The notes: generated by a model not told the origin, from the letters alone. A stretch of DNA of 64,000 nucleotides from Nannocystis bainbridge (GCF_028368995.1 NZ_JAQNDL010000001.1:3936001-4000000), one strand, 5' to 3'. Shown: positions 11,665-48,312, numbered from the stretch's first letter. Translations and numbers: made by a program.

Positions 11665-11720
11665 TGTTTTCAAGGACATGCCCCATGAGACATGTGCAAA
11701 AAATCATGTCCATGCATACC
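11665..11720. repeat. 14-bp-period TG-N10-CA array A (4 units)
   Basis: tgttttcaaggaca|tgccccatgagaca|tgtgcaaaaaatca|tgtccatgcatacc, starting 3 nt after the 11662 stop. Confidence 0.85.
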
Positions 11721-11874
11721 GCCGCTCATGGACGCCCACGCGCGCAGCACCCCGCCGCTCGAAGAACACGGTTACAAACCACAACCTCGCGACCGTGACG
11801 CCGACAGCCCGGTCGTGAGCGCGACAGCCCTGTCGCGGTTGACCGCCCTGCTGGCCGATTGCTAACACCGGGGC

Positions 11875-12567
11875 ATGGCTTCGCTCGGCTCGCGCATCTC
11901 GGTTCTCCTTCTCGCGCTGCTCGGATTCACGGCCCCTGCCGCGGCGTCGATCCCCGTCACCACCGGCGAGTCCGACAGCGACACCTTCCCGGAGACCAGC
12001 GGTGAGCCGCCGCAGCTCATCACCATCGTCCAGCCCACCTCGGGCGACGTGTTCAGCGGCACGCCGGACGCCACCATTCAGTTGATCATCGAGTTCGAGA
12101 CCCTCGACGGCGCCGACATCAAGCTCGACGCGCGCGCCCGCGAGGGCGGCGACGGCCCGTGGACCACCGTGCGCGAGGACGCCTGCCCGGCCGGGCCCTC
12201 GCCCTGCATGCTCGAGATCTCCCTGCCCCCGGCCCTGTACATGCTGTACGCCATCGGCGAGGGCCCCGGCGGCGCCAGCGAGATCGACGTCATCTCCGTC
12301 GAGGTCGTCGAGGCCGCCGCCACCGACACTGACACCACCGACGGCGCGACCGGAGAGACCGAAGCCGCGCCGACCGGCTCCTCGACCGACGACCCCACTG
12401 GCGCCGACTCGACCGGCAGCACCACCGGCGACGGCGCTTCCGCGTCCGGCGGCGACTCGGCCGACGGTGAAAAGGGCTGCGCCTGCAACAGCGGCACGGG
12501 CGGGCCCGACCTGCTCGGCCTCACCCTCGCCCTCCTCTTCATCCCCCGCCTCCGCCGCCGCCGCTGA
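11875..12567 (+). CDS. Secreted protein with MYXO-CTERM-like anchor
   Basis: Signal peptide, Ig-like beta region, Thr/Asp/Gly linker, tail GCACNS...LLGLTLALLFIPRLRRRR. Confidence 0.8.
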   Translation: MASLGSRISVLLLALLGFTAPAAASIPVTTGESDSDTFPETSGEPPQLITIVQPTSGDVFSGTPDATIQLIIEFETLDGADIKLDARAREGGDGPWTTVREDACPAGPSPCMLEISLPPALYMLYAIGEGPGGASEIDVISVEVVEAAATDTDTTDGATGETEAAPTGSSTDDPTGADSTGSTTGDGASASGGDSADGEKGCACNSGTGGPDLLGLTLALLFIPRLRRRR

Positions 12568-12762
12568 GCACCGAGACCGGCCGGCTCCCGCCGCTCGGCT
12601 CGAGCCCGCCCGAGACCGCCCGAGCTCCCGCTGAGCTCGAGCGCCCGAGACCGACCGGGCTCCCGCCGCTGGGCTCGAGCGCCCGAGACCGCCCGAGCTC
12701 CCGCTGAGCTCGAGCGCCCGAGACCGACCAACCTCCCGCCGCTGAGCGCGAGCCCGCCGACC
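12565..12762. repeat. GC-rich intergenic tandem repeat with alternating 35/38-39 bp units
   Basis: CCGAGACC recurs at 12571, 12610, 12645, 12683 and 12718, each followed by ...CTCCCG..GCT.(G/A)GCTCGAGC. Confidence 0.85.
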
Positions 12763-12834
12763 TTGCCGGAAGTCCCGCGCTCTCTCATCGTCCAGAGCCG
12801 CGCTTCAGAGACGCCGCGGCCGCACGCAAGGACA

Positions 12835-12904
12835 TGTCCCATGCAACATGTCCAATCGACAATGTCTCTCAAAACATGCCCGATCGGGCATGCCCGATCA
12901 GTCC
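12835..12904. repeat. 14-bp-period TG-N10-CA array B (4 full units plus partial units)
   Basis: ...ggaca|tgtcccatgcaaca|tgtccaatcgacaa|tgtctctcaaaaca|tgcccgatcgggca|tgcccgatca; abuts the stop of 12898..13389. Confidence 0.88.
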
Positions 12905-13389
12905 TCCGCGGCGGCGCCGGCGAACTCGCCCCAGCGCGGCAGGTCGAGCATGAGCCCGGCCCTGCGGCAGCGGCCGCGCCACTGGCGGAGGTGCGACTCG
13001 AGCTGGTCGCGTTCGCGCTCGAGCTCGGTCAGCTTCGCCGGCGCCGGCGCCTTGCGGAGCTCCGCCGCGCGGCGCTGGAGCGCCTCCCCGCGGTGGACCA
13101 GCTCGCGGTCGCGCGCCGCCAGCCGCTCGCGCGCCGCGTAGAACCCGTCGGCCGCGCCCGCCTCGTCCTCGTCCTCGTAACTGTCCTGGGGGTCGGCCTC
13201 GTCGACCTCGCGGACCAGCCGCTGCAGCTCCGCGCGCAGGCGTTCGCGCTCGCGCTCGACCTGGGCCACCTGCACCAGCACGGCCGCCCGCGACCCGCGA
13301 AAGTCGCGGGAGATGCTGCGCTCGATCGCCTCGCGCCGGCGCAGCAGCGCCTCGCCGTCGGCCTGCAGCTCGTCCTCGATCGCGTTCAT
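12898..13389 (-). CDS. Hypothetical coiled-coil protein
   Basis: E/R/L-rich heptads and GC3 codon bias. Confidence 0.65.
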   Translation of the reverse strand: MNAIEDELQADGEALLRRREAIERSISRDFRGSRAAVLVQVAQVERERERLRAELQRLVREVDEADPQDSYEDEDEAGAADGFYAARERLAARDRELVHRGEALQRRAAELRKAPAPAKLTELERERDQLESHLRQWRGRCRRAGLMLDLPRWGEFAGAAAED

Positions 13390-13582
13390 CGCCGACCTCG
13401 CGCGCCACCTGTCTTAAAAACCATGTCGGGGGCAACCCCGCGGCGGAGCGGGCGGACGGCGGGAGGGGACGACGCGGACATGACCCTCCTGTTGTAGCGG
13501 ATCTGCCGGCCGAGGGGCGACCACGCGCGGGGCCTTGGGCCCCCGTGGCGCCGTCTGGACCGCTCTGCTATGGGTCCGCGCC

Positions 13583-14452
13583 ATGACGATGCAAGGCAAA
13601 CACGTGCTGATCACGGGCGGCAACACCGGGATCGGCAAGGCCACCGCGGTCGAGCTGGCGCGCATGGGCGCGGCCGTGACGATCACCTCGCGCGACCCGG
13701 CCAAGGGCGAAGCGGCGGTCGCCGACATCAAACGGCTGAGCGGTTCGGGCGCCGTCGAGCTCCTGCGCCTCGACCTCGCCTCGCTGGCGGACGTGCGCCG
13801 GTTCGCCGCCGAGTACCTGGCCACGCACCCGCGCCTCGACGTGCTCATCAACAACGCCGGCCTCGTGCAGTCCGACCGCAGCGAGACGGTCGACGGCTTC
13901 GAGACCACCTTCGGCGTCAATCACCTCGGTCACTTCCTGCTCACGCACCTGCTGCTCGACCGCCTCAAGGCGAGCGCGCCCTCGCGGATCGTGGTGCTCG
14001 CGTCGGGTGCCCACCGCGCGGCCCGCGGCCTCGACTTCGACGATCTGCAGTCCCGCCGCAAGTACCGCGGCCTGCCCGTCTACTGCCGCTCCAAGCTTGC
14101 CAACCTGCTGTTCACCCTCGAGCTCGCGGAGCGCCTGCGCGGCACCGGCGTCACCGTCAACGCCGTCCACCCCGGCGTGGTCGCGTCCGGCTTCGGCGCC
14201 GACGGCGACACCCGCGGCCTCTATCGCTTCCTCTTCGGCCTGGCCCAGCGCTTCATGATCACCCCGGAGCAGGGCGCCCGCACCTCCATCTACGCCGCCA
14301 CCGCCCCCGAGCTCGCGCAGACCAGCGGCCAGTACTTCGAGAAATCGAAGCAGAGCCGCCCCACCCGCTACGCGCTCGACCGCGCCGCCGCCCTCCGCCT
14401 GTGGGAGGTCTCCGAGCAGCTCACCGGCACCAACAAGTCGGCCGCCGCCTGA
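13583..14452 (+). CDS. SDR oxidoreductase (retinol dehydrogenase-like)
   Basis: TGGNTGIG, LDLASL, INNAG, NHLGHF, YCRSK, VHPGVV. Confidence 0.93.
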   Translation: MTMQGKHVLITGGNTGIGKATAVELARMGAAVTITSRDPAKGEAAVADIKRLSGSGAVELLRLDLASLADVRRFAAEYLATHPRLDVLINNAGLVQSDRSETVDGFETTFGVNHLGHFLLTHLLLDRLKASAPSRIVVLASGAHRAARGLDFDDLQSRRKYRGLPVYCRSKLANLLFTLELAERLRGTGVTVNAVHPGVVASGFGADGDTRGLYRFLFGLAQRFMITPEQGARTSIYAATAPELAQTSGQYFEKSKQSRPTRYALDRAAALRLWEVSEQLTGTNKSAAA

Positions 14453-14611
14453 CCTTCGGGACAGGCCCGCGGGGCCGCGGTCGTCGCCCGCGACATGACC
14501 TTCGGGCCAGGCCGCGCACCCTCACCGGTCCCGAAGACCACCTCCCGAAAGCAGCGAGACCGGACGCGCCCGTGTGGGCTCGTCCGGTCTCGTCGCACCT
14601 GGCCTCGCGGC

Positions 14612-17725: not shown

Positions 17726-17749
17726 GGGGATCGTCTCCTGGGCGCGCGG

Positions 17750-19210: not shown

Positions 19211-19236
19211 ACGAACCCGTCCGCACTCCGATTCGC

Positions 19237-20691: not shown

Positions 20692-20877
20692 CCTGTCCCT
20701 CGGGACAGTCGATGGACTTCGCCTGTTCCGCTGACCTGTCCCTCGAGACAGTCGCTGGACTTCGCCTGGTCCACTGACCTGTCCCACGGGACAGTCTCTG
20801 GACTTCACCTCGTCCGTTGACCTGTCCCTCGGGACAGGCAGGGAGATCTCCCCCGCGGGACCTGTCCTCGCGGACAG
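20686..20877. repeat. 43-bp tandem repeat carrying TGTCC-N4-GGACA palindromes
   Basis: Palindromes at 20694, 20737, 20780, 20823 (period 43) and 20863, with similar linkers GTC..TGGACTTC.CCT..TCC..TGACC. Fills the whole gap between two convergent stops. Confidence 0.92.
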
Positions 20878-22627: not shown

Positions 22628-22774
22628 CACCGCGATCGTAGCCTGAGTTGCCAGCCTCGTGGCTTTGCCGATTTGCGAGCTTCACTGGCCCGCGTTCGCG
22701 TACGCGGAGCGTGAGTCGGGGACCGGAGCGCGGTTCGGCGCTGGGCGCGAGGCGGCATGCTATGGTCCTCGACG

Positions 22775-23716
22775 ATGAGGCCCGGCTCCCGGCTCCTGGT
22801 GCTGCTCGCGGCGACGATCGGCGTCGTCTCGGGCTGCCTGGTCGAGCTCGACCCGCCGGCCGACTGCGGCGACGGCTTCATCGACGTGCTCGCCCAGGAG
22901 GACTGCGAGCCGTCCCTGCCCGACAGCTACGCCGACCGCTGCGCCGAGCTCGACCGCGTCGCCAGCCCGGCCGCCTGCGACCCCAAGACCTGCCGCTTCG
23001 CCGCCAGCGGCTGCCTCGCCTGCGGCAACGGCGTGCTCGACCCCGGCGAGGAGTGTGACCCCGAGGACATGTCCGAACCGACATGTCCCGGAGAAGGGGT
23101 AGCGACCTGCCGCGACAACTGCACCGTCGACCGCTCGGCCTGCTCGGCCTGCGGCAACGGCGTGCTCGACGTCGACGAGGAATGCGACTTCGCCCTCGAC
23201 CTCGACGACCTGGCCCTGACGATCGCCTGCGCGGAGCTCGACTCGCCGGGCGGCATCTCCCGCCGCTACGGCTCGGGCGAGTCGACCCGCTGCACCAGCA
23301 AGTGCGAGTGGGACCGCTCGCGCTGCTCCTACTGCCAGAACGACAAGCTCGAGGGCGACGAGGTCGACGGCCTCTACGTCGACTTCGAGCAGACCATCCA
23401 GCCGCCGCCCGAGGTCTGCGACAACCAGCACGCCGACCCCGAGGCCCTGGTGGCTCATTGCCAGTCGGCCTGCGGCAGCAGCTACCGCGTCGAGTGCCAG
23501 TTCTCCTGCGCCACCGACTGTCTGGAGTTCGAGAACGTGGGCGTGCCGACCGAAGAGCTCGGCTGCTGCACCGCCCGCAAAGAGACCTGCCCCTACGACC
23601 CGCAGACCGGCGAACTGATGCCCGGCCGCAGCCACTGCTGCCGCAAGCTCACCCATCCGGACGAGAATCCCTGCGAGCCGACCGGCTTCCCAAACCTCAT
23701 CTACACGTGCCGCTGA
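22775..23716 (+). CDS. Cys-rich lipoprotein with myxobacterial CGNG/CGDG...EECD repeats
   Basis: Lipobox VSGC; repeats CGDGFID..EDCE, CGNGVLDPGEECD, CGNGVLDVDEECD. Confidence 0.82.
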   Translation: MRPGSRLLVLLAATIGVVSGCLVELDPPADCGDGFIDVLAQEDCEPSLPDSYADRCAELDRVASPAACDPKTCRFAASGCLACGNGVLDPGEECDPEDMSEPTCPGEGVATCRDNCTVDRSACSACGNGVLDVDEECDFALDLDDLALTIACAELDSPGGISRRYGSGESTRCTSKCEWDRSRCSYCQNDKLEGDEVDGLYVDFEQTIQPPPEVCDNQHADPEALVAHCQSACGSSYRVECQFSCATDCLEFENVGVPTEELGCCTARKETCPYDPQTGELMPGRSHCCRKLTHPDENPCEPTGFPNLIYTCR

Positions 23717-24014
23717 TCGCAGAGGGCACGCCGCCGCTGAACCCGGCGACCACCGGCGCGGAGCGGGCAGCGAGCTCGGGCGCCGTATGGCCGCCTGGCA
23801 TGCCTCGTGTCGCCTCGCGCGCGCGGCGCGAAGCCTCGCTCCAGAGCGGCGATCTCGCGCCTCCGGCAGCGCAGCGAACGGCCCGCGTGCGCCCTCCCCG
23901 GTTCCGCGGCCTCATGGCCTGGTGACCGGGCGCGAGCGCCTGACCGCCGCCTCGGCCCTGGCCGGGCTCTGCGGCGCACGCGGCCGGTTTGCCGCGTGTG
24001 CTACCTTGAAGTCG

Positions 24015-24992
24015 ATGCGCCCGCCGTACGCGCTGCTCGTCGCTGCTGCCGTCGCTGCCGGGGTGGGCTGCGTCGTCCCGCTCGACCCGGTGCGCGACTG
24101 CGGCGACGGTTTCATCGACAAGCTCGCCGGTGAGGACTGCGAGCCCTCGCTGGTCGCCGGCATGCTCGGCTTCTGCGGCGCCGACGAGGTCCCCGGCCCG
24201 GGCGCGTGCGACCGCGAGACCTGCACCTTCGACCGCGACGCCTGCACCCGCTGCGGCAACGGCCTGCTCGATCCCGGCGAGGCATGTGACCCAAGGGACA
24301 TGTCCCAACCGGCATGTCCGCTCGCAGGCCTGGCCCGCTGCCGCAGCGACTGCACCATCGACGTCTCGAGCTGCCCGCGCACCTGCGGCGACGGCGTCGT
24401 CGACCTCGACCTCGAGGAGTGCGACTGGGGTCGGCCCGACGACCTCACCGACAAGGGCGCCCCGCTCAGCGTCGAATGCGTCGACCTCCCCGCCCCGACC
24501 TACCGCGCCTACGGCGACGGCACCTCGACCCAGTGCACCGCCGACTGCACATGGGACCGCTCCGACTGCACCTACTGCGGCAACGCGCGCCTCGAGAGCC
24601 TCGCCGTCATCGACAAGTACGACCTCCACCTCGACGACGCCGGGAGGCACGACTTCGCGCCCGAAGTCTGCGACGCCGGGGTGGCGCCCGATCTGCAAGC
24701 GCTGAGCGCGTTCTGTCAGGACCGCTGCGACGCCGGCGGCCTCATGATCGCGTGCACCTACGCATGCAGCGCCACCTGTGAGAGCTTCCTCGAGCCCGAG
24801 GACGGCGGCCCCGACAACGGCTGCTGCACCCCGAGGGGCGCCAGTTGCCCTTACTACAAGGACGGCGAGCTGTTCAAGCTGTTCAACAAGCGCAAGCCGT
24901 GTTGCGGCCTGGAGGGCATCGAGTTCGACGCGGACCCGTGCGTCGTGAATGTGGAGCTCGAGGGTACGGTGGGCTTGCGCATCTGCCCTTGA
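24015..24992 (+). CDS. Cys-rich lipoprotein, tandem paralog of 22775..23716
   Basis: Lipobox GVGC; same Cys skeleton (CGDGFID, CGNGLLDPGEACD, WDRSDCTYC, GCCTPR). Confidence 0.82.
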   Translation: MRPPYALLVAAAVAAGVGCVVPLDPVRDCGDGFIDKLAGEDCEPSLVAGMLGFCGADEVPGPGACDRETCTFDRDACTRCGNGLLDPGEACDPRDMSQPACPLAGLARCRSDCTIDVSSCPRTCGDGVVDLDLEECDWGRPDDLTDKGAPLSVECVDLPAPTYRAYGDGTSTQCTADCTWDRSDCTYCGNARLESLAVIDKYDLHLDDAGRHDFAPEVCDAGVAPDLQALSAFCQDRCDAGGLMIACTYACSATCESFLEPEDGGPDNGCCTPRGASCPYYKDGELFKLFNKRKPCCGLEGIEFDADPCVVNVELEGTVGLRICP

Positions 24993-31714: not shown

Positions 31715-31984
31715 CCCGCCTGTCCTTCGGGACAGCTTCTCTCGGCCGCGCCGCCTGACCCCGCGAGGGACCTGTCCCTCGGGACATCCACATCCTCCGC
31801 CCAGAGGTCCCAGGATCTCCGACACGTGGGCGACCTCGTCCGGGCCTCTCGAGCGACCGCTCGGGTGATGTCCCGCGCACGCGGCTTCCGGGGCTTCGCT
31901 CACTCGCGTCGGGGCGGCGTTCTGCGGGGCTCGTGGTCCCCGGTCGCTTGCGCCGACCTGGCCGGCTCGGTCTACTGCGAGCGC

Positions 31985-33193
31985 ATGTCGGTGGCCGCGC
32001 GAAACCTGTCCCTTGGTGCATGTCTCTCGATCCTCGCTGCCTGTCCCGCGAGCGGCGGTGAGACCACCGCCTCGACCGGCGAGCCGGCCACCACGACGAC
32101 CACGTCCACCACCACCGCGGCGACCCTTGACGCCTCGACTGGCACCACCGCGCCGACCACCGACGCGCCGACTGGCACCACCACCGGCGCGCCTGTCGAC
32201 CGCGAGCCGTTCAGCATTCAGGTGCTCGACAATGCCTGGATCACCGGCACCGACGGTTGGACCACCCAGCACCAGGACATCGCCTTCGACCTCGGCGCAG
32301 CCCCCTTTTCAAAGGTCACGCTGATCGTCGATCTCGGCACCGACTGTTATCCGTGGGAAAATTGGCAGGCCAGCCCGCCGCCGCCGGGGCAGTCGTGGCC
32401 GGCCTCGTGCGACGCGTTCGACCGGACCATGGGCTTCATCAGCGACCCGGGCGGCGACCCGGGCGACCCGCCCGGCTTCGAGCTGCTGCGCTCGATCACC
32501 CCGTTTGGCGGCCCCGCTCACCTCGAGGCCGACATCACCGACTACGCCAACGCCCACCCTGGCGAGCACGTGCTGCGCTCGTACATCAACACCTGGCCTG
32601 ACGGCGCCGGCAAGGTCAGCGGCTCGGCCGGCGGCTGGCACCTCAGCGTGCGCATCGAGGGCCAGCCCGGCCCGGCCCCGCGCGAGGTGCTCGCGGCCGT
32701 CTCGCTGTTCGCCGGCGACGTCGGGGTCGACGGCGCGACCACCACGGTGCCGTTCAGCCTGCCCGCGGGCTTCAAGAAGGCCGAGCTCGTCTACACCGTC
32801 AGCGGCCACGGCGGCGCGACCGACAACAGCGGCGGCTGCATCGGCCCCGCCGAGGAGTTCTGCAAGCGCAAGCACCACATCAGCCTCGACGGCGCCGTCG
32901 TCACCTCGTTCGAGGCCTGGCGCACCGACTGCGGCGAGCTGTGCACGATCACCGACAATGCGCTCGGCGTCGGCCCGGCCAAGTTCTGCGCCGAGAACCC
33001 GTGCGGCGCGATCGCCTCGGTCCAGGCCGCGCGCGCCAACTGGTGCCCCGGCGACCTCGTCGCCCCGCTGCGCGGCCCCGTCACCTCGGCCCTCGGCGCC
33101 GGCCCGGACCACGAGTTCCAGTTCGCCATCGACAAGGTCAAGGAGGGCGGCAGCTGGACGGTGTCGGCGGCGATCTACGCTTACGGGCCGTGA
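31985..33193 (+). CDS. Lipoprotein with peptide-N-glycosidase F-like domains
   Basis: LAAC lipobox, Thr linker, CDAFDR, ELLRSITPFG, SGHG, AEEFC, RANWCPG. Confidence 0.78.
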   Translation: MSVAARNLSLGACLSILAACPASGGETTASTGEPATTTTTSTTTAATLDASTGTTAPTTDAPTGTTTGAPVDREPFSIQVLDNAWITGTDGWTTQHQDIAFDLGAAPFSKVTLIVDLGTDCYPWENWQASPPPPGQSWPASCDAFDRTMGFISDPGGDPGDPPGFELLRSITPFGGPAHLEADITDYANAHPGEHVLRSYINTWPDGAGKVSGSAGGWHLSVRIEGQPGPAPREVLAAVSLFAGDVGVDGATTTVPFSLPAGFKKAELVYTVSGHGGATDNSGGCIGPAEEFCKRKHHISLDGAVVTSFEAWRTDCGELCTITDNALGVGPAKFCAENPCGAIASVQAARANWCPGDLVAPLRGPVTSALGAGPDHEFQFAIDKVKEGGSWTVSAAIYAYGP

Positions 33194-33268: not shown

Positions 33269-33352
33269 TGTCCCGAAGAACATGCCTCATTCGACATGTC
33301 TCATCGAACATTATCGATCGGGCATATCCTTGAGAGCATGTCCGCTCGGACA
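33269..33352. repeat. 14-bp-period TG-N10-CA array C (6 units)
   Basis: tgtcccgaagaaca|tgcctcattcgaca|tgtctcatcgaaca|ttatcgatcgggca|tatccttgagagca|tgtccgctcggaca; ends at the 33353 stop, between convergent genes. Confidence 0.92.
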
Positions 33353-34252
33353 TCACGTGAACGGCGGCTCTGCCCGGCGGCGCAGGCGGGCCGCCTCGTC
33401 GCCGCGGCCGAGCGCCTCGAGGCCCTCGGCGAGGATCCGCGCGAACGGGCCGCGGAGGTCGCCGCGGCGGACGGGCAGGCGGTCGTACCAGCGCAGCGCC
33501 TCGGCCATGCCGCCCTCTGCCTGCGCCGGCGCGGCGCAAGCGGCACGTAGGGACAGCTTGGCCAGGCGGGCCACGCACAGCACCAGGTGGCTGGCGCTGT
33601 CGCCCCCGAGGGTCGCGTCGTCGAAGTTGTCGCCCTGCAGCAGCGGGAACACGCGGCGGACGAACGCGACGTAGCGGCCGAGGTTGCGCCCGGCGTCGGC
33701 CAGACAGGCGACGTGGGCCGCGAACTCCTCGTCGAGCAGGACCTCGAGGCAGGGTCGCTCGGGCCGGCGGCGCTTCCACACCTCGACGGCGAGCAGGCCG
33801 AGCAGGTCCTGGTCGGCCTCGGCGAGGGTCTGCGTCATGTACACGCGCAACGCCAGCTGCCACGCCGACGCGAACTCGGGCGCCTCGTCGAGGATCGCCA
33901 GGGTCCGCGGCAGGCGCAGCCCGCTGAGCCGATCGAGCCAGGCCAGCAGCGCGCGGTCGGGCAGCGCCGCGACCTCGCCGATGCGCAGGAAGCCGGGGCA
34001 GCGCAGCGCCCACACGCCGTCGTAGCGGTACTCCTCCTCGAGCTGCGCCGCGTAGGCGGGGATCTCCTGCTCGGCGGCGACGCTGGCGATGCTGCGCTCG
34101 CGCTCGTCGAATTCGGCGGCGCCGAACCACCGCCGCATGAGCGCCGTCTCGACCGCGACCGCGGCGCGAGCCCGGGCACGGATCCGGCTGCGCTCCACCG
34201 CTCGCACGGGTCGCGGCCGCTCCCGCGGGAGGCGCTGCGGAAACCTGGCCAT
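33353..34252 (-). CDS. Hypothetical all-helical protein
   Basis: GC3-biased ORF; no family recognised; start uncertain. Confidence 0.6.
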   Translation of the reverse strand: MARFPQRLPRERPRPVRAVERSRIRARARAAVAVETALMRRWFGAAEFDERERSIASVAAEQEIPAYAAQLEEEYRYDGVWALRCPGFLRIGEVAALPDRALLAWLDRLSGLRLPRTLAILDEAPEFASAWQLALRVYMTQTLAEADQDLLGLLAVEVWKRRRPERPCLEVLLDEEFAAHVACLADAGRNLGRYVAFVRRVFPLLQGDNFDDATLGGDSASHLVLCVARLAKLSLRAACAAPAQAEGGMAEALRWYDRLPVRRGDLRGPFARILAEGLEALGRGDEAARLRRRAEPPFT

Positions 34253-34512
34253 GACCGGTCTATGGGGCGGCCTCCGCGGCGCGGCAACGCGCACCGACAA
34301 GCGACGTGCGCAGTCCGACGTTCACGGGCCAAAGCGCGCCGAAAAGCGCCGCAGAAGGCCGCTGCGAACGTCGGTCGGCCCGCACGCCGCGACACCTCTC
34401 GTCGCTGTCACGCAGGCCACGGCCGTCGCGCTCGCAGGCGGTGCGGACGCCTGTCCATTCGCGCCGGGGCCTTGAGCGCCGGGGCCGCTTCGCGCAAGCT
34501 CGCAAGCAGATC

Positions 34513-37068
34513 ATGACGCCGTTCCACGCAGTGACCGCGGCCTTGATCGTCGTGGGCTCCGGGGTCCTGGCGCTGGGCGCGAAGCGGACGCTGGCGCTCC
34601 TTCGACTGCGTCAGGTCACCCCTCATGCCGGACCGTGGCGGGTCCTGCTCTCCCTGATCGTCGTCTGCATCGCCGCCTACATCGCCACCGCGGTCGTCGT
34701 CCTGCTCGGCCTGCAAGAGGCGGTGGTGGCGCTGACCGGCGTCATCTTCCTGGGCGGTGGGGTGTTCGTATACCTCGCCGCGGACGCCAGCTTCCGCACC
34801 ATGCAGGCGCTGGTGAAGTCGAGCATGACCCAGCGCCAGGTCGGCGACATGCTCGAGGCCCTCAGCCACGCCGTGCTGCTGGTCGACGACCGCGGCGTCG
34901 TCCGCACCGTCAACCGCAAGCTGTGCGAGATCACCGGCCTGCCCGCCAGCGCCCTGGTCGGCAAGTCGATCATGCAGGCGGTCGGGCTCGAGAACCCGTT
35001 CGCGACCTCGGCGGTCAAGAGCAGCATCGACATGCCGCACACCCACGAGCACGAGCTGCGCCGCCGCGACGGCGCGGTGGTGCCGGTGGCGGTGGCGATC
35101 GTGCCGGCGCACCGCGGGTTCGTGTGCGTGCTGACCGACATCCGCGAGGACCGCCTGCGCCGACGTCAGCTCGACGACGCGGTCCGGATCGCCGAGGAGA
35201 TCTTGCGCGCCCGCAACGAATTCATGGCGCTGGTGGCGGTCGAGCTGCGCGACCCGCTGGGCCAGCTGTCGCGGGCCTCTCGCGCCCTCGTCGACGCCCC
35301 GCCCGAGGCCGACGTCGCCGCCATGGCCCGCAAGATCGGCGTCGCCGGCGAACAGCTCGAGCGCGTCGCCCAGAGCCTGCTCGAGGTCGGTCGCCTCGGC
35401 GGCAGCGCCGAGGGGGCGCGGGTGTTCCAGCCGGCCGCGCTGCTGCGCGACGCCGCCGAGGCGCTGTCGGTCCAGGCCGGGCGCGCCGGGGTGATCGTGC
35501 GCCACTACGTCGAGCAGGGCGTGCCTTCGACCTTCTACGGGCGCGAGGCGCAGATCCGGCAGATCCTGGGCCTGCTCGGGCTCAACGCGATCGCGCGGGC
35601 CCCGGGCGGCGAGATCCGGATCGCCGTCGAACCTGTCCCCGGGGACAAATCATCGCACCAGCTGCTGTTCTCGGTCCGCGACACCGGCTATCCGCTGACC
35701 GATACCACCGCCGACGTCGAGTTCGACCCGCTGACCAGCGGCGCGCGCAGCCAGGGCGGCCGGCTCGACCTGGCGATCTGTCGCCTGCTGGTGCTCTCGC
35801 TCGGCGGGCGCATGTCGGCCGGCAACACCACCGGCAACACCGCGACCGTGTTCTTCACCGTGCTGGGCGGCGTCGCCCCCGGGTCGCAGCAGGCGGCGCT
35901 GGTCAACGCGCTCGGCGAGACCCAGGCCGTCGCGTCGCTGAGCGGCGGCGGGTGGAAGAACTCGTTCGAGGCCTCGGCGCGGCTGGCCCGGCTCGCCGTG
36001 CCCGACGCCGGCCCCGAGCCCGAGCGGCGCACCGGCTCGGTCCTGGTCGTCGACGACAGCCCGACCAGCCGCGAGCTGCTGGCTCACCAGCTGCGGCAGG
36101 CCGGCAACACCGTCGAGGTCGCGGGCACCGCCAGCGAGGCGCTCGACCTGGTGTGGCAGCAGGAGTTCGACGTCGTCCTGCTCGACGTCCTCCTGCCCGA
36201 CAGCGACGGCATCGCCGTGCTCGAGGAGCTGCGAGAAAAAGGCGCGCTCGAGCGGCTCAGCGTCTTGATGATCTCCGCGGTCGAGGAGACCTCGAGCGTG
36301 GCCGCCTGCATCGAGCGCGGGGCCGAGGACTTCTTGCCCAAGCCGGTCAGCCCGGCGCTCTTGCGGGCCCGCCTCGGCGCCTGCCTCGAGAAGAAGTTCC
36401 TGCGCGACAAGGCCCGCCACCACCTCATCCAGCTGGCGGCCGAGGGCCGGCGCGCCAACGACCTGCTGCGCGTGCTGCTGCCCGACCCGATCGCCGACGA
36501 GCTGCAGTCGACCGGCACGATCGCCCCGCGCCGGCTCGACAACGTCGCCGTGGTGTTCGCCGACATCGTCGGCTTCACCGCCTACTGCGACCGCCACAGC
36601 CCCGAAGAGGTGCTCATCAGCCTGCAGGACCTGTTCACCCGCTTCGAGCAGCTCGCGCTCGAGTTCGGCGTGCAGAAGATCAAGACGATCGGCGACTCCT
36701 TCATGGGCGCCGCCGGCCTGTTCAGCGCCGAGGACGAGCGCCCGGCCCTGCGCTGCGTCCAGTTCGGCCGCGCGATCCTGGCGGCCGGCGCCGACCTCGC
36801 GACCCACTGGAACCTGCGCATCGGCATCCACGTCGGCCCGGTCGTCGGCGGCGTGGTCGGCACGCGTCAGTACATCTTCGACATCTGGGGCGACACGGTG
36901 AACACCGCCCAGCGCATCGAACAAAACGCCCGCGTCGGTCAGGTCTGCATCAGCGCCGCGGCGCGGCGGCAGGTCGAACCCGACTACGAGACCGAGAGCA
37001 TCGGCCTCAGCGAGATCAAGGGCAAGGGCGAGGCCGAGATCTTCATCGTCGTCGGGGGCCCGAATTGA
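34513..37068 (+). CDS. Membrane PAS - degenerate HisKA/HATPase - REC - class III adenylate cyclase
   Basis: 3 TM, PAS (VNRKLCEITG, RRRDG), H-box VAVELRDPL with no His, REC (VVDDS, LDVLLP, LPKP), cyclase FADIVGFT, KTIGD, FDIWGDTVNTAQRIE. Confidence 0.88.
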   Translation: MTPFHAVTAALIVVGSGVLALGAKRTLALLRLRQVTPHAGPWRVLLSLIVVCIAAYIATAVVVLLGLQEAVVALTGVIFLGGGVFVYLAADASFRTMQALVKSSMTQRQVGDMLEALSHAVLLVDDRGVVRTVNRKLCEITGLPASALVGKSIMQAVGLENPFATSAVKSSIDMPHTHEHELRRRDGAVVPVAVAIVPAHRGFVCVLTDIREDRLRRRQLDDAVRIAEEILRARNEFMALVAVELRDPLGQLSRASRALVDAPPEADVAAMARKIGVAGEQLERVAQSLLEVGRLGGSAEGARVFQPAALLRDAAEALSVQAGRAGVIVRHYVEQGVPSTFYGREAQIRQILGLLGLNAIARAPGGEIRIAVEPVPGDKSSHQLLFSVRDTGYPLTDTTADVEFDPLTSGARSQGGRLDLAICRLLVLSLGGRMSAGNTTGNTATVFFTVLGGVAPGSQQAALVNALGETQAVASLSGGGWKNSFEASARLARLAVPDAGPEPERRTGSVLVVDDSPTSRELLAHQLRQAGNTVEVAGTASEALDLVWQQEFDVVLLDVLLPDSDGIAVLEELREKGALERLSVLMISAVEETSSVAACIERGAEDFLPKPVSPALLRARLGACLEKKFLRDKARHHLIQLAAEGRRANDLLRVLLPDPIADELQSTGTIAPRRLDNVAVVFADIVGFTAYCDRHSPEEVLISLQDLFTRFEQLALEFGVQKIKTIGDSFMGAAGLFSAEDERPALRCVQFGRAILAAGADLATHWNLRIGIHVGPVVGGVVGTRQYIFDIWGDTVNTAQRIEQNARVGQVCISAAARRQVEPDYETESIGLSEIKGKGEAEIFIVVGGPN

Positions 37069-39879: not shown

Positions 39880-40153
39880 CGCGCGGTGCTGGCATTCCCG
39901 GCGAACCGTCGAAGTACCCTCATTCACGCGGCGTCCGCCCCGCGCCGGCGGGCCGGGCGCCATGGCTGCGATTGCCGTGAACGCCGTCCGCTCTGGCGTC
40001 ATTCCGAGAATCTACATACATGCCCTAAAGGACATACGGCGAGGCGCCCGCCGCACCGCGCAATCGCTCCACAATCATTCGTGACGGCGCACACACACGA
40101 CAATGGCCCTCGCGCCTATCGCCGCTGTCATGGCGTGAGCGATCATCGCGGCG

Positions 40154-42356: not shown

Positions 42357-42370
42357 GGCGACGGACCATA

Positions 42371-42594: not shown

Positions 42595-42670
42595 TGTCCC
42601 GATGAACATGCCCCTTCGAACATGCTCTTTATGGCATGCGCGAAAGAACATGCCCGTCAGGACATGTCTC
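42595..42670. repeat. 14-bp-period TG-N10-CA array D (5 units plus partial)
   Basis: tgtcccgatgaaca|tgccccttcgaaca|tgctctttatggca|tgcgcgaaagaaca|tgcccgtcaggaca|tgtctc; abuts the 42671 stop. Confidence 0.92.
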
Positions 42671-43150
42671 TCAGTCCGGGAACGCCCGTGAGCACTGGTC
42701 GAGCAGCCACGGCAGCTCGGCGTTGCGGTCGCCCAGCAGCACCGTCACGCACGCCGCGGCGCGCGGGCTGGTCTCGCGCTCGCAGGCGCTCTGGTCGGCC
42801 GCGCGGCTGGCCTGCAGCAGCTTCGCGGCCGCGCCCGCGCTGTCGATGTCGCGGTAGAGCGCGTCGGCGGCGGCGAACATGGCCGAGCAGGCCTGCTTGC
42901 GGTCGGTCGGCAGCGGGTCGGGCAGGCGCGACGCGACCTGGGTCCGCAGCGCCGCCGCCTCGCCGTCGTAGTCGGGCTGGTTGGCGAACCCGCGCGCGTC
43001 GTTGTTGGCGGTGCGGCCCGCGGGCGGGCTCGGCTGCGTCGGCGCCGGCGCGGCGTCCGACGACGTCGGCGAGGCCGAGCGCCCTTCCGGGGCCGGGGTA
43101 CAGGCGGCGAGGAGCACCACCGCGAAGAGAGCGTCCCGCGCGCGAGGCAT
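42671..43150 (-). CDS. Hypothetical lipoprotein
   Basis: LAAC lipobox; helical domain with 4 Cys. Confidence 0.7.
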   Translation of the reverse strand: MPRARDALFAVVLLAACTPAPEGRSASPTSSDAAPAPTQPSPPAGRTANNDARGFANQPDYDGEAAALRTQVASRLPDPLPTDRKQACSAMFAAADALYRDIDSAGAAAKLLQASRAADQSACERETSPRAAACVTVLLGDRNAELPWLLDQCSRAFPD

Positions 43151-43344
43151 GCGGCCGGAGCATAGCCGCCCCCGCCCCCGACGTCTCGCTTCGCGGGCCG
43201 TCCGGCGCCCCCTCGATCGGCCCTGCCCGCCGTCCTGCCGTATCCGCGAAGCACCTGCGAAGGCCTCATGTCACGGACACGGTGCGCCGATCCGCACGCC
43301 CGTGCGCATGCGCCGGCGCGGCCTGCCGCGATAGGATGCCCGCC

Positions 43345-45189
43345 ATGACGGCGGTCCCTCGCGACGCGTGGCCCATGGTCTCTCTCGCCCTCGCGGCGCT
43401 CCTGTCCGGCAGGGCGAGCGCCGCGACCGAGCCGGGCAGCCTGCAGAACCCGCTCGAGAAGGCGGCCGACTGCCGCAAGTGCCACGCCTTCGCCAACCCG
43501 CCGCAGCACGTCGAGCTGCCCAACGTCTCGCCGATCGCGTGGGCCGGCGGGATGATGGCCAACGCCGCCCGCGACCCGGTGTTCTGGGCCGGCGTGGCGA
43601 TCGCCGCCCAGGACATGCCCGGCGAGACCAATAGCTGCATCCGCTGCCACTCGCCGCGGGCCTTCGTGGCTGGCCGCGACGACGCCACGGCGATCGACGA
43701 CCTCGATCCCGACGACCTCTCCGGCGTGGACTGCGACCTCTGTCACCGCATGATCGACGACGGCCTCACCCCGTTCGGCGACGCGCACTACACCATCGAC
43801 GACGTCGTCGGCGACGCCGGCGACGTGCCCAAGCAGGGCCCGTGGTCCTACGACGGCGGCGACAAGCCGATGCACAGCTGGGTCGTCGGCGACCTGCTGG
43901 GCCGCTCCGAGCACTGCGGCACCTGTCACGACGTCACCACCGGGCGCGACCGCCTCGACGACCGCGGCCAGCCGATCGGCGCCAAGTTCAACGAGCAGCG
44001 CACCTACAGCGAGTGGCTCGCCAGCGCCTACGCGAGCGAGGGCCTCGAGTTCAAGTCGTGCCAGGACTGCCACATGCCGGCGGTCGACGACGTGGCCGGC
44101 TGCGCCGAGTTCAACGGCCAGGGCACCTTCCACCCGACCGGCGGCCGCCGCCACGACCTCGCGGGGGCGAACCGCCGCATGGTCGAGATCTTGAAAACCC
44201 TCTACGGCAGCGAGGGCAGCGGCGACATCGAGGACGCGTACTTCGAGGTCGCGCTCGCCGGCATCGACCTGTCGCTGGCCGGGGCCGCCACGCTCGAGGT
44301 CACCGCGCCGGCGGAGGTCGACCTCGCCGCGGGCATCGACGCGTGGACGGTCAAGGTCACCAACAACACCGGCCACAAGCTGCCGACCGGCTACTCCGAG
44401 GGTCGCGTCATGTGGCTCGAGGTCACCGCGAGCTACTTCGACGAGGTCGTCTACGCCTCGGGCCGGTGGCTCGCCGGCGAGGGCCTCGAGGGTGACCCTC
44501 AGCAGCGCACCTACGAGGCGATCGCCGTCCACCAGCAGACCGGCGTCACCAACCATTTGCTGCTCAACGACTACTGGCAGGTCGACAGCAGGATCCCCCC
44601 CAAAGGCCTCCAGGCGGGCATCGAGACCGACCCCGTCGGCGACCGCTACACCCCGCTGCCCGACGAGACCTGGCCGCACTGGGACGAGGTCACCTACTCG
44701 TTCGGCCCGGGCCAGGCGATCGACACCACCCCCGGCGTGGCCGACGTGCTCGACCTCCGCGTCCGCCTCCTCTACGTCATCAACACCCCGGCCTACCTCG
44801 ATTTCCTGGCCGACGAGAACCACACCAACAGCGCCGGCGCCGACGCGCGGGCCCTGTTCCCGGCCGAACCTGATCCATTGGTCCTGGCCGAATGGACAGC
44901 CTCGGTGCCGGTCGTCGGCCTGGTCGAGGAGGGCGCGACCGACACCGGCGCGACCGACAGCGACACCACCAGCGACACCACCGGCCCGGCGCCGACCACC
45001 GGCGCGACGACGGAGCCGACGTCGTCGAGCTCGGGCGCGACGCCCACCAGCACGAGCGGCGGAGCGTCCGACAGCGCGACGACCAGCGGGCAGACCGGCG
45101 GCGAAGACGGCTGCGGCTGCCGCCAGAGCAGCCCGGCCGGCAGCCTCGCGCTGCTGCTGCTCGCGCTCGTCCGCCGCCGCCGCCGCTGA
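43345..45189 (+). CDS. Secreted pentaheme c-type cytochrome with MYXO-CTERM anchor
   Basis: CRKCH, CIRCH, CDLCH, CGTCH, CQDCH; NAARDP, TYSEW, GHKLPTG; Thr/Ser stalk; GCGCRQ...LLLLALVRRRRR. Confidence 0.9.
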   Translation: MTAVPRDAWPMVSLALAALLSGRASAATEPGSLQNPLEKAADCRKCHAFANPPQHVELPNVSPIAWAGGMMANAARDPVFWAGVAIAAQDMPGETNSCIRCHSPRAFVAGRDDATAIDDLDPDDLSGVDCDLCHRMIDDGLTPFGDAHYTIDDVVGDAGDVPKQGPWSYDGGDKPMHSWVVGDLLGRSEHCGTCHDVTTGRDRLDDRGQPIGAKFNEQRTYSEWLASAYASEGLEFKSCQDCHMPAVDDVAGCAEFNGQGTFHPTGGRRHDLAGANRRMVEILKTLYGSEGSGDIEDAYFEVALAGIDLSLAGAATLEVTAPAEVDLAAGIDAWTVKVTNNTGHKLPTGYSEGRVMWLEVTASYFDEVVYASGRWLAGEGLEGDPQQRTYEAIAVHQQTGVTNHLLLNDYWQVDSRIPPKGLQAGIETDPVGDRYTPLPDETWPHWDEVTYSFGPGQAIDTTPGVADVLDLRVRLLYVINTPAYLDFLADENHTNSAGADARALFPAEPDPLVLAEWTASVPVVGLVEEGATDTGATDSDTTSDTTGPAPTTGATTEPTSSSSGATPTSTSGGASDSATTSGQTGGEDGCGCRQSSPAGSLALLLLALVRRRRR

Positions 45190-45905
45190 TTGCCCTGCTG
45201 CGCCTCGCCAGCGCCGCGGCCGCTGACGGTCCCCCTGCCAGCGCCGCGGCGATGGCCCGAAGCCACCGCCCTCGCATTGCGGCCACCGCCTGCTGAACCT
45301 GCCGGAGCGTCACGGAGATCTCGCAAGCGCAATTCCGCCCACCCCGCCCCTCACCGCGCCTCACGCGCACGAAGAATGAACAGCGTCTCGCCCGCCTCGT
45401 GGCAGCTTTCCCGTTAAGCCGCCATCATTTCCGGCCATTTATTTCCCCACTTACTCTTCGCCGACTCGCCTGCCAAACGCCCCCTGCTCGCCTCCTCGCA
45501 CCGCCCCCGGCCGTGGAGACGCCCCGGCCACCGTTCCCGCGCGGCCTTCACCGACCGCGAGCGCTGCCGTACTGTCACATTCGCCAGGGCACCCGCTTCA
45601 CCTGACCTTTTGGACATGTGCATCGACCCGCGTTTCGATGAGCGCCCGTTCATCCGCGTCGCCCTCGCGCGGCCCTGGAACCGGTGAACCGCACTTAACT
45701 CGACCGCTCGCGGCCTCGCTCGTACTTTGATTGCGTCGAGTCCAGTCGGGGCGCTGCGCAGCTCCTCCGCCTGTCCTCGATCGCCGCCGCTCCGGTGGCG
45801 AGAGCGCCGATGCGCCTCCCGTTCGCCGCCGCTGCCCGGCTGCGCCGGCGAGCCCGCCGCGCCGTGCGAGCGTCACGGCGCCGTCCTTCCCCTGCAAGGA
45901 GCCGA

Positions 45906-47426
45906 ATGACGGTACCACGATATGCCCCCCCGCACCCCGCGTCGCGCCCCTGCTTGCAATTGGTGTCGTCGCATTCGCGCCGCGCCGCCCCTGGCGACGG
46001 CGGCCCGCGCCCCTCGCTCGTCGCCGCGATCGACGATTTGCCGGAGCTCACGGGCGACGTCTTCGTCGCCGCCCTCGCCCGCGAGACCGCCGCCGGCACG
46101 CGCGTCCTGGCCTATCACGCCCGCCGCGACGACGACCGCGGCGTCGTCTTGACCGCCGCGCTGGTGCGCCCGCGCGGCCTCGCGGTGATGCGCGGCCGCG
46201 CCGTGCCCGACCGCCCGCTGCCGGCCCTGAGCGGCCCGCTCGGCGCCCACGAGCGCCTGCTCGAGCGGACCTACGGCCTGCAGCTCGCCGCCCCGCCTTC
46301 GCGCGAAGAATCGACCGACCCGCGCGACATGTGGTTCTGGCCCGCCGACAAGCACCTCGGCCCCGGCGACCGCGACGCGAGCTTCGGCGGCCTCGTCGAG
46401 CACGGCCCGCTGCGCCTGCACTGCCGCGGCGACCAGATCCGCGTCGCCGAGCTGCGCCCGCTCGCCGAGCGCGACTTCGAGTCCGCCCTGGGCACGCAGC
46501 CGTTCGCCGAGCTGCCCGCGCGGATCGAGGCCCTGCGCGACGAGGGCAGCATCGCCCGCGCCTGGGCCCACGCCCTGGCGATCGAGGGCCTCGCCGGCGT
46601 CGAGGTCGACCTCGCCTGCAGCGTGCACCGCGGCGTCGGCCTCGAGCTCGAGCGGATCGCCGGCCACCTCCTCGGCCTCGCTCGCATCGCCCGCGCGATC
46701 GGCTGCGGCCCCGCCGCGTCCGAGCTCGAGCGCCTGCACGCCCGCGTCCGCGACCTCCTCGTGCGCCTGTGCGGCGACCCCCACGGGCACGGCTTCATCC
46801 GCCCCGGCGGCGCGCCCGAGCCGTTCAACGCTTCCCGCATCGCCGACGTGCGCGCCACCCTCGCTGCGCTGCGCGACGCCTTCGCTCGCACCGGCGCGGG
46901 CCTGCTGCGCGCTCGCTCGGTCCAGGCCCGCCTCGACGGCGTCGGGGGTCTCAGCCGCCGCGACGCCGCCCTCGCCGGCCTCGTCGGTCCGGCTGCGCGC
47001 GCCAGCGGCCTGGCGCACGACCTCCGGCGCGACCTCCCCGGCCGCCTCTACCGCCGCCACGAGGTCGAGCTGTTCGTCGAGCACGACGGCGACTGCCTCG
47101 CCCGCACCTCCGTGCGCGTGCACGAGGTCGAGGCCGCCCTCGCGTGGATCCTCGGCTGCGTCGCCGGGGCCGCCGCTGCGCGTACCTCGGGGATCGCCCC
47201 GCTCGCCGCGCGTCACCTGGCGATCGCCGCCGTCGAGGGCGCGCGCGGGCCGATCGTCCATTTGCTCGAGACCGACGCCACCGGTCAGCTGATCGACTAT
47301 CGCGCCCAGGACCCCGCCATGTTCGCCTGGCCCGCCCTGGCCACCGCCGTGCGCGGCGGCTCGCTCGCCGACGTGCCCCTGTGCGGCCACAGCCTCGACC
47401 TCTCGCTCGGCGGCCCCGCCTGCTGA
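45906..47426 (+). CDS. Degenerate group-4 hydrogenase-like large subunit (HyfG/EhrL; NuoC+NuoD-like)
   Basis: ERLLERTYGL, LELERIAGHL, GLVGPAARASGLAHDLRRD, GDCLAR, VEGARG, DP..FAWPAL, DVPLCGHSLDLS; no Ni-binding CxxC pairs. Start uncertain. Confidence 0.72.
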   Translation: MTVPRYAPPHPASRPCLQLVSSHSRRAAPGDGGPRPSLVAAIDDLPELTGDVFVAALARETAAGTRVLAYHARRDDDRGVVLTAALVRPRGLAVMRGRAVPDRPLPALSGPLGAHERLLERTYGLQLAAPPSREESTDPRDMWFWPADKHLGPGDRDASFGGLVEHGPLRLHCRGDQIRVAELRPLAERDFESALGTQPFAELPARIEALRDEGSIARAWAHALAIEGLAGVEVDLACSVHRGVGLELERIAGHLLGLARIARAIGCGPAASELERLHARVRDLLVRLCGDPHGHGFIRPGGAPEPFNASRIADVRATLAALRDAFARTGAGLLRARSVQARLDGVGGLSRRDAALAGLVGPAARASGLAHDLRRDLPGRLYRRHEVELFVEHDGDCLARTSVRVHEVEAALAWILGCVAGAAAARTSGIAPLAARHLAIAAVEGARGPIVHLLETDATGQLIDYRAQDPAMFAWPALATAVRGGSLADVPLCGHSLDLSLGGPAC

Positions 47427-47501
47427 TGCTCTCACGGGCGCGCCCGCCGACCTCCGTCCTCGACCTCCTCGCCACGCACGACTCACCCACCGGCTTCGAT
47501 C

Positions 47502-48218
47502 ATGCAGGCACCCACTCCAGCCACCGTCGCCAAGATCCTCGTCGTCGAGGACAACCGCAAGCTCGCCAGCTTCCTCTCGCGCGCGCTCTCCGAGGAGGGC
47601 TACGTCGTCGACCTCGTCGAGGACGGCGCGGTCGCGGTGTCGCAGGCGCGCAGCATCCCCTACAACCTCGTGATCCTCGACTGGATGCTGCCCTCGCTCG
47701 ACGGCCTCCACGTCTGCCGCGCCCTGAGGACCGCGGGCAAGACCGTCCCGATCCTCATGCTCACCGCCCGCGCCGACTTCTGTGACCGGATCTCCGGCCT
47801 CGACGCCGGCGCCGACGATTTTTTACCCAAGCCGTTCGACCTCAGCGAGCTGCTCGCCCGCGTGCGCGCCCTCGGCCGTCGCGGCCAGCGCGACCGCTTC
47901 CTCGAGGTCGGCCTGCTGCGCATCGATCGCCAGGACCGCACCGTCTGCTTCGCCGGCGTCGACCTCGACCTCACCCACCGCGAGTTCATGCTGCTCGGCT
48001 ACCTCGCGCGCGAGGCCGGCCGCGTCGTCTCCCGCCTCGAGCTGCTGCAAAACGTGTGGGAGGCCACCTACGACCCCGGCACCAACATGATCGACGTCCA
48101 CGTCAAGAACCTGCGGACCAAGCTCGGCGAGCACGCGGGCATGATCGAGACGGTGCGCGGCGTCGGCTATCGCTGGCACACCGAGGTCGACATTCTCTCG
48201 CCCGAGGCCCGCTCCTGA
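47502..48218 (+). CDS. OmpR/PhoB family response regulator
   Basis: LVVEDN, LDWMLP, LTAR, GADDFLPKPF, LTHREF, IETVRGVGY. Confidence 0.94.
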   Translation: MQAPTPATVAKILVVEDNRKLASFLSRALSEEGYVVDLVEDGAVAVSQARSIPYNLVILDWMLPSLDGLHVCRALRTAGKTVPILMLTARADFCDRISGLDAGADDFLPKPFDLSELLARVRALGRRGQRDRFLEVGLLRIDRQDRTVCFAGVDLDLTHREFMLLGYLAREAGRVVSRLELLQNVWEATYDPGTNMIDVHVKNLRTKLGEHAGMIETVRGVGYRWHTEVDILSPEARS

Positions 48219-48237
48219 GCCCCCGCTCGCATTCTCA

Positions 48238-48312
48238 TAAACCTTCGAACATGTTCCCGAGAACATGCTCCTATGCGCATGCTCATTTAGACATGTTCTT
48301 TCGCGCATGTCA
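48238..48312. repeat. 14-bp-period TG-N10-CA array E (4 full units plus partial units)
   Basis: taaaccttcgaaca|tgttcccgagaaca|tgctcctatgcgca|tgctcatttagaca|tgttctttcgcgca|tgtca; between convergent stops. Confidence 0.92.

Follow-up and report, generated by a model that had tools for sequence, protein, structure and literature searches.

Short motifs that reach extreme copy numbers within a genome are few, and the origin and function of those on record—Highly Iterated Palindrome 1 (HIP1), the DNA uptake sequences and uptake signal sequences (DUS/USS), and the repetitive extragenic palindromes (REPs)—are long-standing puzzles. The subject here is a motif that resembles these iterated motifs yet fits none of them, lacking as it does a defining feature of each of HIP1, DUS, and REP. 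It is a 14-bp interrupted palindrome, TGyCC-N4-GGrCA, found in a 64,000-nucleotide stretch of the Nannocystis bainbridge genome (GCF_028368995.1, NZ_JAQNDL010000001.1:3936001-4000000; C1:3936001-4000000 in our contig coordinates; hereafter, the window), where it is tiled head to tail in five arrays.

REP sequences and the bacterial interspersed mosaic elements (BIMEs) are palindromic, cluster at gene 3′ ends, and form arrays that differ between relatives. REP doublets forming hairpins (REPINs) are extragenic, descend from a master sequence, and have a cognate REP-associated tyrosine transposase (RAYT) of the Y1/HUH class. The Nannocystis motif likewise consists of short palindromic repeats at gene 3′ ends, is biased towards convergent regions, and forms arrays that vary between relatives. 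Unlike REPs and REPIN-RAYT pairs, it has no RAYT that we could find in the source genome and no longer master sequence, its unit is 14 bp, and it has 874 strict units deep within coding sequence. For the tiling itself, the closest analogue is found among the operator arrays of ribbon-helix-helix proteins, such as the MetJ met-boxes and the omega-protein heptads, on which dimers sit side by side on gapless head-to-tail units. There, as here, a short palindromic or repeated unit is tiled without gaps. Those arrays serve a few regulatory promoters, whereas the Nannocystis motif has thousands of sites, and just 37 of its 954 arrays lie in divergent regions.

HIP1 of cyanobacteria (GCGATCGC) is reportedly tied to orphan methyltransferases. 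It is over-represented 15- to 300-fold (PMC5861425). Like HIP1, the Nannocystis motif is a hyper-abundant, lineage-specific palindrome that lies within and between genes and is conserved between genomes (PMC5861425). Its over-representation exceeds 10-fold inside open reading frames (ORFs) as well as between them, and its conservation between genomes was seen in a small, non-independent sample. Unlike HIP1, which is an uninterrupted 8-mer, it is interrupted, tiled, and located at gene 3′ ends; the accessible part of the HIP1 account reports neither exact tiling nor concentration at 3′ ends (PMC5861425). The likeness to DUS/USS extends to a density of ~1 per 1–1.5 kb, an intergenic excess, frequent placement just after a stop codon, close inverted repeats, lineage-specific dialects, and permissive regions, as far as the accessible part of the DUS account describes them (PMC2397512). 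The Nannocystis motif is indeed short, lineage-specific, present about once per kb, and enriched after stops. A DUS is a single asymmetric 10–12-mer, and in the same account one copy suffices (PMC2397512), whereas enrichment of the Nannocystis motif needs two arms with a 4-bp spacer, and its tiling is exact at 14 bp. Our search of the literature on Nannocystis repeats, on the motif itself, and on myxobacterial REPs, with subscription journals and supplements outside its scope, found no description of it.

Anatomy, abundance, and placement of the unit

The first-pass annotation of the window had described 14-bp TG...CA units, tiled head to tail at an exact period, and had predicted a 14-bp periodicity of CATG across the genome. 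Both descriptions are borne out. In the window, 18 pairs of CATG are separated by a lag of 14, compared with 0–4 pairs at each lag of 4–13 and 15–20. Genome-wide (11.05 Mb, 71.5% GC, five contigs, 90.5% complete), there are 3,736 pairs at lag 14 and 62–476 at each remaining lag between 4 and 27, with further peaks at 28 (2,073), 42 (1,586), 56 (751), and 70 (383). The unit recovered genome-wide is TGyCC-N4-GGrCA. The period tolerates almost no indels: CATGYCC-N4-GGRCATG occurs 778 times, and the equivalents with N0–N3 or N5–N9 occur 0–4 times. Similarly, consecutive units start 14 bp (1,272 cases), 28 bp (405), or 42 bp (173) apart, and distances of 15–20 bp add up to just 10. The unit interiors, which had been taken to differ in every copy, vary within limits: they conform to yCC-N4-GGr, with variation confined to the 4-bp spacer. 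Alignment on CATG gives the consensus GGACATGTCC and then a spacer richer in A and T. In the literature searched, GGACATGTCC appears only in papers on p53 half-sites, which is a coincidence. Ten of the 14 positions are conserved per unit, and the spacers are diverse, the commonest accounting for 103 of 3,305.

What is the elementary unit, the CATG-centred junction or the TG...CA 14-mer? Of 2,828 strict units, 1,070 are fully isolated, with no CA before and no TG after, whereas only 77 of 1,771 GGRCATGYCC sites lack both partner arms; hence, the TG...CA 14-mer is the autonomous unit. About half of the arrays extend one slot past the first or last CATG, ending in xxTG or CAxx. Isolated units have the extended consensus rsC-TGTCC-yynr-GGACA-Gsy. 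Where two flanking arms enclose a junction (n = 248), the junction reads CATG in 180 cases, CAGG in 31, and CCTG in 18. The two arms belong together. With units masked, the half-site CCTGTCC ranks 53rd of its 105 permutations, which is the median, and partner arms matching at five of five positions number 3,741 at N4, as against 3–22 at N2, N3, N5, and N6. Enrichment thus requires a partner arm at N4, and a solitary half-site is insufficient.

Strict units number 4,173 in the genome, whereas patterns in which the ends or the spacer were altered give 33, 69, and 150. Relaxed units number 7,628, a density of ~1 per 1.45 kb, compared with 273–349 in scrambled controls. Chaining in-phase CATGs, with one missing slot permitted and at least three CATGs required, gives 954 tiled arrays, mostly of 3–7 slots and at most 20. 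The longest (G000:C3:1237890-1238197, G000 being the source genome; locus L154, 2890-3197) has ~20 slots between a small ORF and a gene for a pyridoxal phosphate (PLP) enzyme; its ACA|TG junctions are kept, its yCC/GGr arms have largely decayed, and its interiors are A/T-rich. Elsewhere, an AT-richer segment at G000:C2:2556665-2559233 carries ~30 tRNA genes in ~2.6 kb and may be a tRNA island or a phage-derived array. The 250-kb bin that holds it (2.50–2.75 Mb of C2) contains 186 units, within the range of other C2 bins.

Where do the units lie? Genes were called with our own crude caller, based on GC content at third codon positions (GC3), which yields ~7,000 genes at 80% coverage and on which all placement statistics rest. 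By these calls, 423 of the 954 arrays are in convergent regions, 310 in tandem, and 37 in divergent ones, while 183 are called genic (89 of these within 150 nt of an over-extended start) and one is at a contig edge. In tandem regions, the median array lies 23–24 bp past the upstream stop and 226–230 bp before the next start. Unit density per 10-bp bin rises from 5–29 to 320–560 at the stop codon; units begin 0–20 nt after stops, and the preferred starts of the first unit are −3, where a TGA stop supplies the unit’s own TG, and +2. A unit is found within 150 nt of 2,075 of the 7,016 called gene ends, namely 1,190 of 2,902 convergent ends (41%) and 885 of 4,114 tandem ends (21.5%). This placement at gene 3′ ends, the spread across genome and genus, and the copies inside genes were overlooked by the first-pass annotation. 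The 37 divergent arrays were considered as a lead to an autoregulated binding protein, and most of them have large gaps that suggest missed genes.

Copies within genes and across the genus

Units also occur inside genes, and in a form that points to a force acting on the DNA itself. Deep coding sequence contains 874 strict units at N4, compared with 8–64 at any other spacing from N0 to N12, an enrichment of at least 14-fold; the spacings that keep the same coding phase, N1, N7, and N10, give 19, 8, and 10. Because 14 bp is not a multiple of 3, single in-gene units cannot be insertions and must have arisen by point mutation, and 668 of them are in 591 genes that have just one or two units each. 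The three reading frames are used 502, 290, and 82 times, the used frames being those that cost the fewest rare codons. Codon bias is overridden. In 69% of 615 cases, the codon preceding GTC-CNN-NNG-GAC has T as its last base, as against 3.3% before GTC generally, and the threonine codon following xTG-TCC-NNN-NGG is ACA in 91% of 231 cases, as against 2.2% overall. Flanking residues show no conservation beyond the DNA flank preference. These codon-overriding copies are the mark of a DNA-level force within genes.

Unit-dense clusters in large genes are a separate matter. They are protein repeats with periods of 36, 42, 48, and 75 nt, and they explain part of the in-gene units only. In the window, adjacent genes 22757-23716 and 23787-24992, neither with a Pfam match, each contain an in-frame two-unit tiling (23056-23083 and 24287-24314); both read D-P-x-D-M-S-x-P and are kept in all five of the other species compared, with changes mainly in the spacers. 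For the in-gene unit in the Peptidase_S51 gene (Table 1), a search for an outgroup gave no match outside the genus with the query used.

How widely is the motif distributed? A strict four-junction pattern, searched in one genome per species across 185,579 species, possibly with the source genome itself left out, matched only Nannocystis records, in five stretches. Among 40 relatives, tiling of four CATGs was present in 10 of 10 genomes of the same genus and in none of 30 from other genera; it is abundant (409–527 matches) in five of the ten, and the remaining five have 1–13 matches. For one of these low-tiling genomes, assembled into only 40 contigs, poor assembly does not explain the low number. 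The isolated unit CTGTCC-N4-GGACAG, on the other hand, has 23–567 copies in each of the 10 other genomes of the genus; outside the genus, one sister genus has 39 copies, another 8, and the rest 0–4. A control pattern gives 0–3. Since isolated units are everywhere in the genus and tiling is abundant in half of it, the isolated form looks ancestral and the tiled arrays look derived, judging by this distribution.

Syntenic DNA from five other species was set beside that of the source genome. Promoter-bearing intergenic lengths are stable (248 bp here and 248–249 elsewhere; 106 here and 105–106 elsewhere, in four species), whereas unit-bearing 3′ intergenic lengths vary widely (186 here and 189–1348 elsewhere; 91 here and 105–3000 elsewhere). 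At three such orthologous regions, the number of units is 5 here and 3–7 elsewhere, 2 here and 2–3 elsewhere, and 2 here and 0–7 elsewhere, with one species having no units at the third. Array length differs between species, and each species keeps its own 14-bp phase. In some species, junctions read GGACCTGTCC, or a unit forms part of a larger composite repeat. In 122 non-independent comparisons, mostly of in-gene units, cross-species identity is 0.90–1.00 in the arms (0.78 at the r position), 0.72–0.80 in the spacers, and 0.71–0.96 in the flanks.

Protein site, RNA element, or mobile DNA

A palindrome at gene ends could be read as DNA or as an RNA hairpin, and several observations bear on the choice. 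First, Watson-Crick pairing between the arms is at the level expected after shuffling (1463 vs 1411, 1935 vs 1894, and 1893 vs 1882), and chi-square values for paired positions (32–42) are on a par with those for unpaired controls (17–30) and far below those for adjacent positions. Second, the flanks of isolated units pair less than when shuffled (292 vs 389 ± 15). Third, when units in tandem contexts are oriented by the upstream gene, their logo departs from symmetry by no more than 0.05, and there is no enrichment of T downstream of the units. Given no covariation in arms or flanks, a symmetric logo, and no T-tract, it is sequence rather than pairing that is read. The hallmark of an intrinsic terminator, conserved pairing without conserved sequence followed by a U-tract, is thus not found here.

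We therefore lean towards the view, which we rate as slightly better than an even bet, that this genus-wide, hyper-abundant interrupted palindrome acts at the DNA level, with both arms read by a sequence-specific, probably dimeric factor, and that arrays expand by slippage of whole units. The factor would most likely be a homodimeric protein on double-stranded DNA that reads the two arms at a fixed distance. A dimeric reader had already been proposed for the five arrays, and the fixed 4-bp spacing, the lack of covariation, the strand-symmetric logo, and the unenriched half-sites make it the favoured interpretation. The same proposal cast the arrays as possible platforms for cooperative polymerisation or wrapping, with a 120° rotation between successive units that is a matter of arithmetic. 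Copies would arise by point mutation and be favoured by selection or by transmission bias, and because of this they would pile up where sequence is least constrained: in the first 0–150 nt after stops, above all convergent ones, and in permissive codon frames within genes. Candidate roles are to mark self-DNA for uptake or recombination, to serve as a nucleoid or insulator site, or to form a bidirectional barrier at gene ends.

Such slippage would both create the exact 14-bp tiling and extend it, because the junction GGACA|TGTCC amounts to a 10-bp direct repeat every 14 bp; spacers would then drift while the arms are held. Stepwise addition of 14-mers, proposed earlier for the arrays, survives in a weaker form. 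Identical spacers within an array are found in 3.9% of pairs, compared with 1.1% in a random-pair control (~3–4-fold), and array length varies with phase kept, which fits whole-unit slippage. The minor junctions CCTG and CAGG, 49 of 248, are expected from out-of-register 14-bp duplication of an isolated unit.

Several points weigh against the dimeric-factor interpretation. No binding protein was found or short-listed: the neighbours of the longest arrays and of the window units include no DNA-binding candidates, and genes beside the longest arrays are ordinary, coding for an HflX-like GTPase, a PLP enzyme, and transporters. Selection and transmission bias fit the data alike. The placement statistics depend on a crude GC3-based gene caller, and the conservation profile mixes coding and non-coding units from related species. 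In addition, the arrays fold as very stable RNA, with z-scores of −2.1 to −6.2 in five of six folds and −0.5 in the other (array 4 of Table 1 reaches −50.9 kcal/mol, z = −6.2), and they sit exactly where 3′-end hairpins would act, so an RNA-level role is possible. Finally, one arm pair shows more G·U than A·C on the sense strand in tandem contexts (191 vs 129, p = 6e-4). That excess can be explained by selection on RNA or equally by transcription-coupled mutation bias; strong folding is expected of any tiling of palindromes. In convergent regions, G·U and A·C show no clear pattern by array half (left 261 vs 265, right 226 vs 292).

These last points are the ground for an alternative that we consider unlikely but still worth weighing, in which the units are RNA-level 3′-end elements. 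Each would form a 5-bp stem with a tetraloop, neighbours could also pair as 10-bp stems, and the elements would act as bidirectional terminators lacking a U-tract or would stabilise the upstream mRNA by blocking 3′ exonucleases, a function reported for REP sequences; this could be their sole role or a co-opted one. The start of units 0–20 nt past stop codons, their presence at 41% of convergent and 21.5% of tandem ends, and their persistence at orthologous gene ends although the sequence turns over would all suit such an element. So would the scarcity of other terminators. Canonical hairpin-plus-T terminators were found at 93 of 2,482 and 91 of 2,139 protein-gene ends under a strict rule (45 and 50 under a relaxed rule), a scan of the window from 30 to 50 kb found 3 where 4.3 are expected by chance, and terminators show a weak negative association with units (odds ratios 0.62 and 0.56, p = 0.13 and 0.10), with few terminators to compare. 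On the other side of the balance, alongside the missing covariation, the symmetric sense-oriented logo, and the missing T-tract, the loop is strictly of 4 nt, and the UUCG and GNRA excesses over their complements are weak (37 vs 22 and 59 vs 46). Spacings of 15–20 nt, which would be harmless to independent hairpins, are nearly absent, and single units are enriched, against codon bias, within genes, where a terminator would be harmful. Moreover, many tRNA genes are followed by canonical hairpin-plus-T terminators, of a type that protein-coding genes almost never show, and only 9 of 102 tRNA genes have a unit within 120 nt downstream. Rfam gave no match at the arrays, its sole match in the window being a tRNA at 584-656.

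Two kinds of hairpin deserve mention in their own right. Genome-wide, tRNA 3′ flanks carry a GC-rich hairpin with a CTTT(G/C)GG-type tail, as at 657-700 in the window, after the tRNA at 584-656. A long GC-rich hairpin (gagaccggacg...cgtccggtctc) at 14560-14600, between convergent genes, is kept in all six species; it adjoins a unit that overlaps the upstream stop and resembles a conventional terminator.

A second alternative is a specific form of the DNA-level reading, in which the palindrome is a self-DNA receptor site spread by uptake- or transfer-biased transmission in the manner of DUS/USS. Its density lies near the ~1.1–1.5 kb spacing of Neisseria DUS, which, in the accessible part of the account, are mostly intergenic, often just past stops, located in permissive regions, and arranged as close inverted repeats with terminator activity (PMC2397512). 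In being genus-specific, the motif recalls a DUS dialect, and its in-gene enrichment of at least 14-fold against codon bias is in the size range of driven motifs, HIP1 standing at 15- to 300-fold (PMC5861425). Solitary half-sites are unenriched, however, whereas a single DUS suffices, and tilings of up to ~20 units have no counterpart in the accessible part of the DUS account (PMC2397512). For HIP1, selection has been argued over biased repair (PMC5861425). With its uptake role in this genus drawn by analogy, this form of the reading seems distinctly improbable to us. We give the same low credence to an extended version. In it, a dimeric self-DNA receptor or marker would recognise the palindrome and bias uptake, transfer, or recombination in this myxobacterial genus, and one clade would have recruited its tiled arrays as insulators or bidirectional protein roadblocks, in place of intrinsic terminators, at protein-coding genes.

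Mobile DNA is the least credible explanation, and such models are largely excluded: REP/REPIN-like units, or units like miniature inverted-repeat transposable elements, pasted into harmless 3′ DNA by a RAYT or by a DDE enzyme recognising TG...CA, would account for the high copy number, the genus specificity, the palindromic unit, the excess of convergent over divergent regions, the hypervariable array-bearing intergenic regions, and the composite repeats that contain a unit, but the 90.5%-complete source genome has no match to the RAYT/Y1 transposase family (PF01797; the same search matched 6 of 14 control genomes), just 7 repeated intervals that reach 400 bp or more with 4 or more copies, none of which ends in the motif, and no master sequence, with 10 of 14 unit positions conserved, while the 668 units in 591 genes would cause frameshifts as 14-bp insertions and show a codon skew of the kind left by point mutation. 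The earlier suggestion that TG...CA marks the ends of DDE transposase or integrase substrates is unsupported for the same reasons, since no repeat family of that size has such ends, no Y1 match was found, and the in-gene units are not insertions. The only multicopy long repeat in the genome, a 3.5-kb sequence in about five copies and both orientations, lies at contig ends (G000:C1:4515675-4536530 and C2:3026591-3033751) and may be terminal or assembly-related.

Units in the window and significance of the motif

Re-reading the five arrays confirmed their positions and their TG...CA register (Table 1). The window holds 43 relaxed units in total, more than had been listed before, and the genes that flank its arrays are ordinary chromosomal genes. 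In other species, the region orthologous to array 5 contains composite repeats of ~100–110 bp, each with a unit (loci L092 and L093).

Table 1. Arrays and selected units in the window, with positions counted from its first letter
Feature	Position	Composition	Context and other species
Array 1	11665..11720	three complete TG...CA units and one TG-only slot	begins 3 bp past the stop of the + gene 11078-11662
Array 2	12835..12904	five in-phase slots, three with both TG and CA; arms perfect at 12877-12890	runs over the stop (12898-12900) of the - gene 12898-13389; convergent intergenic region
Array 3	33269..33352	six slots in phase, four being TG...CA and two starting with a degenerate TT/TA	fills the convergent gap between genes 31826-33193 (+) and 33353-34300 (-), ending exactly where the - gene stops; 5 other species have orthologous arrays
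Array 4	42595..42678	five complete units (42595-42664) and one TG-only slot	immediately downstream of the - gene 42671-43150
Array 5	48238..48321	four complete units (48252-48307), with partial slots on either side	between response-regulator gene 47502-48218 (+) and gene 48310-49827 (-), whose stop codon abuts the last CATG
43-bp tandem repeat	20692..20877	four copies with one unit each (ccTGTCCCTCGGGACAg), plus a fifth unit	convergent intergenic; absent from the first-pass annotation; 3-7 units in the orthologous region of 5/5 other species
Isolated intergenic unit	40021..40034	TGCCCTAAAGGACA	same place in 4/5 other species, arms kept in these, 4-bp spacer different in each
In-gene unit	10671..10684	TGTCCTTTCGGACA	within the Peptidase_S51 domain of gene 10258-11049; retained in 4/5 other species, final CA lost in G010
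In-gene unit	35634..35647	TGTCCCCGGGGACA	within a hybrid histidine-kinase gene; identical in 5/5 other species

What does the motif mean for the biology of Nannocystis? First, its anatomy is unusually informative. Arms at a fixed distance, exact 14-bp tiling, ancestral and derived forms in one genus, and copies that override codon choice make two questions directly testable: whether selection or drive maintains the motif, and which factor reads it. Second, we know of no uptake-sequence-type drive outside Neisseriaceae and Pasteurellaceae, and of none that is palindromic; the self-DNA-receptor reading, if true, would be the first of either kind. Third, with ~30% of called gene ends marked by a unit and canonical terminators rare at protein-coding genes, the motif matters for the annotation of transcription units. 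It is also relevant to the engineering of Nannocystis, which are producers of natural products.

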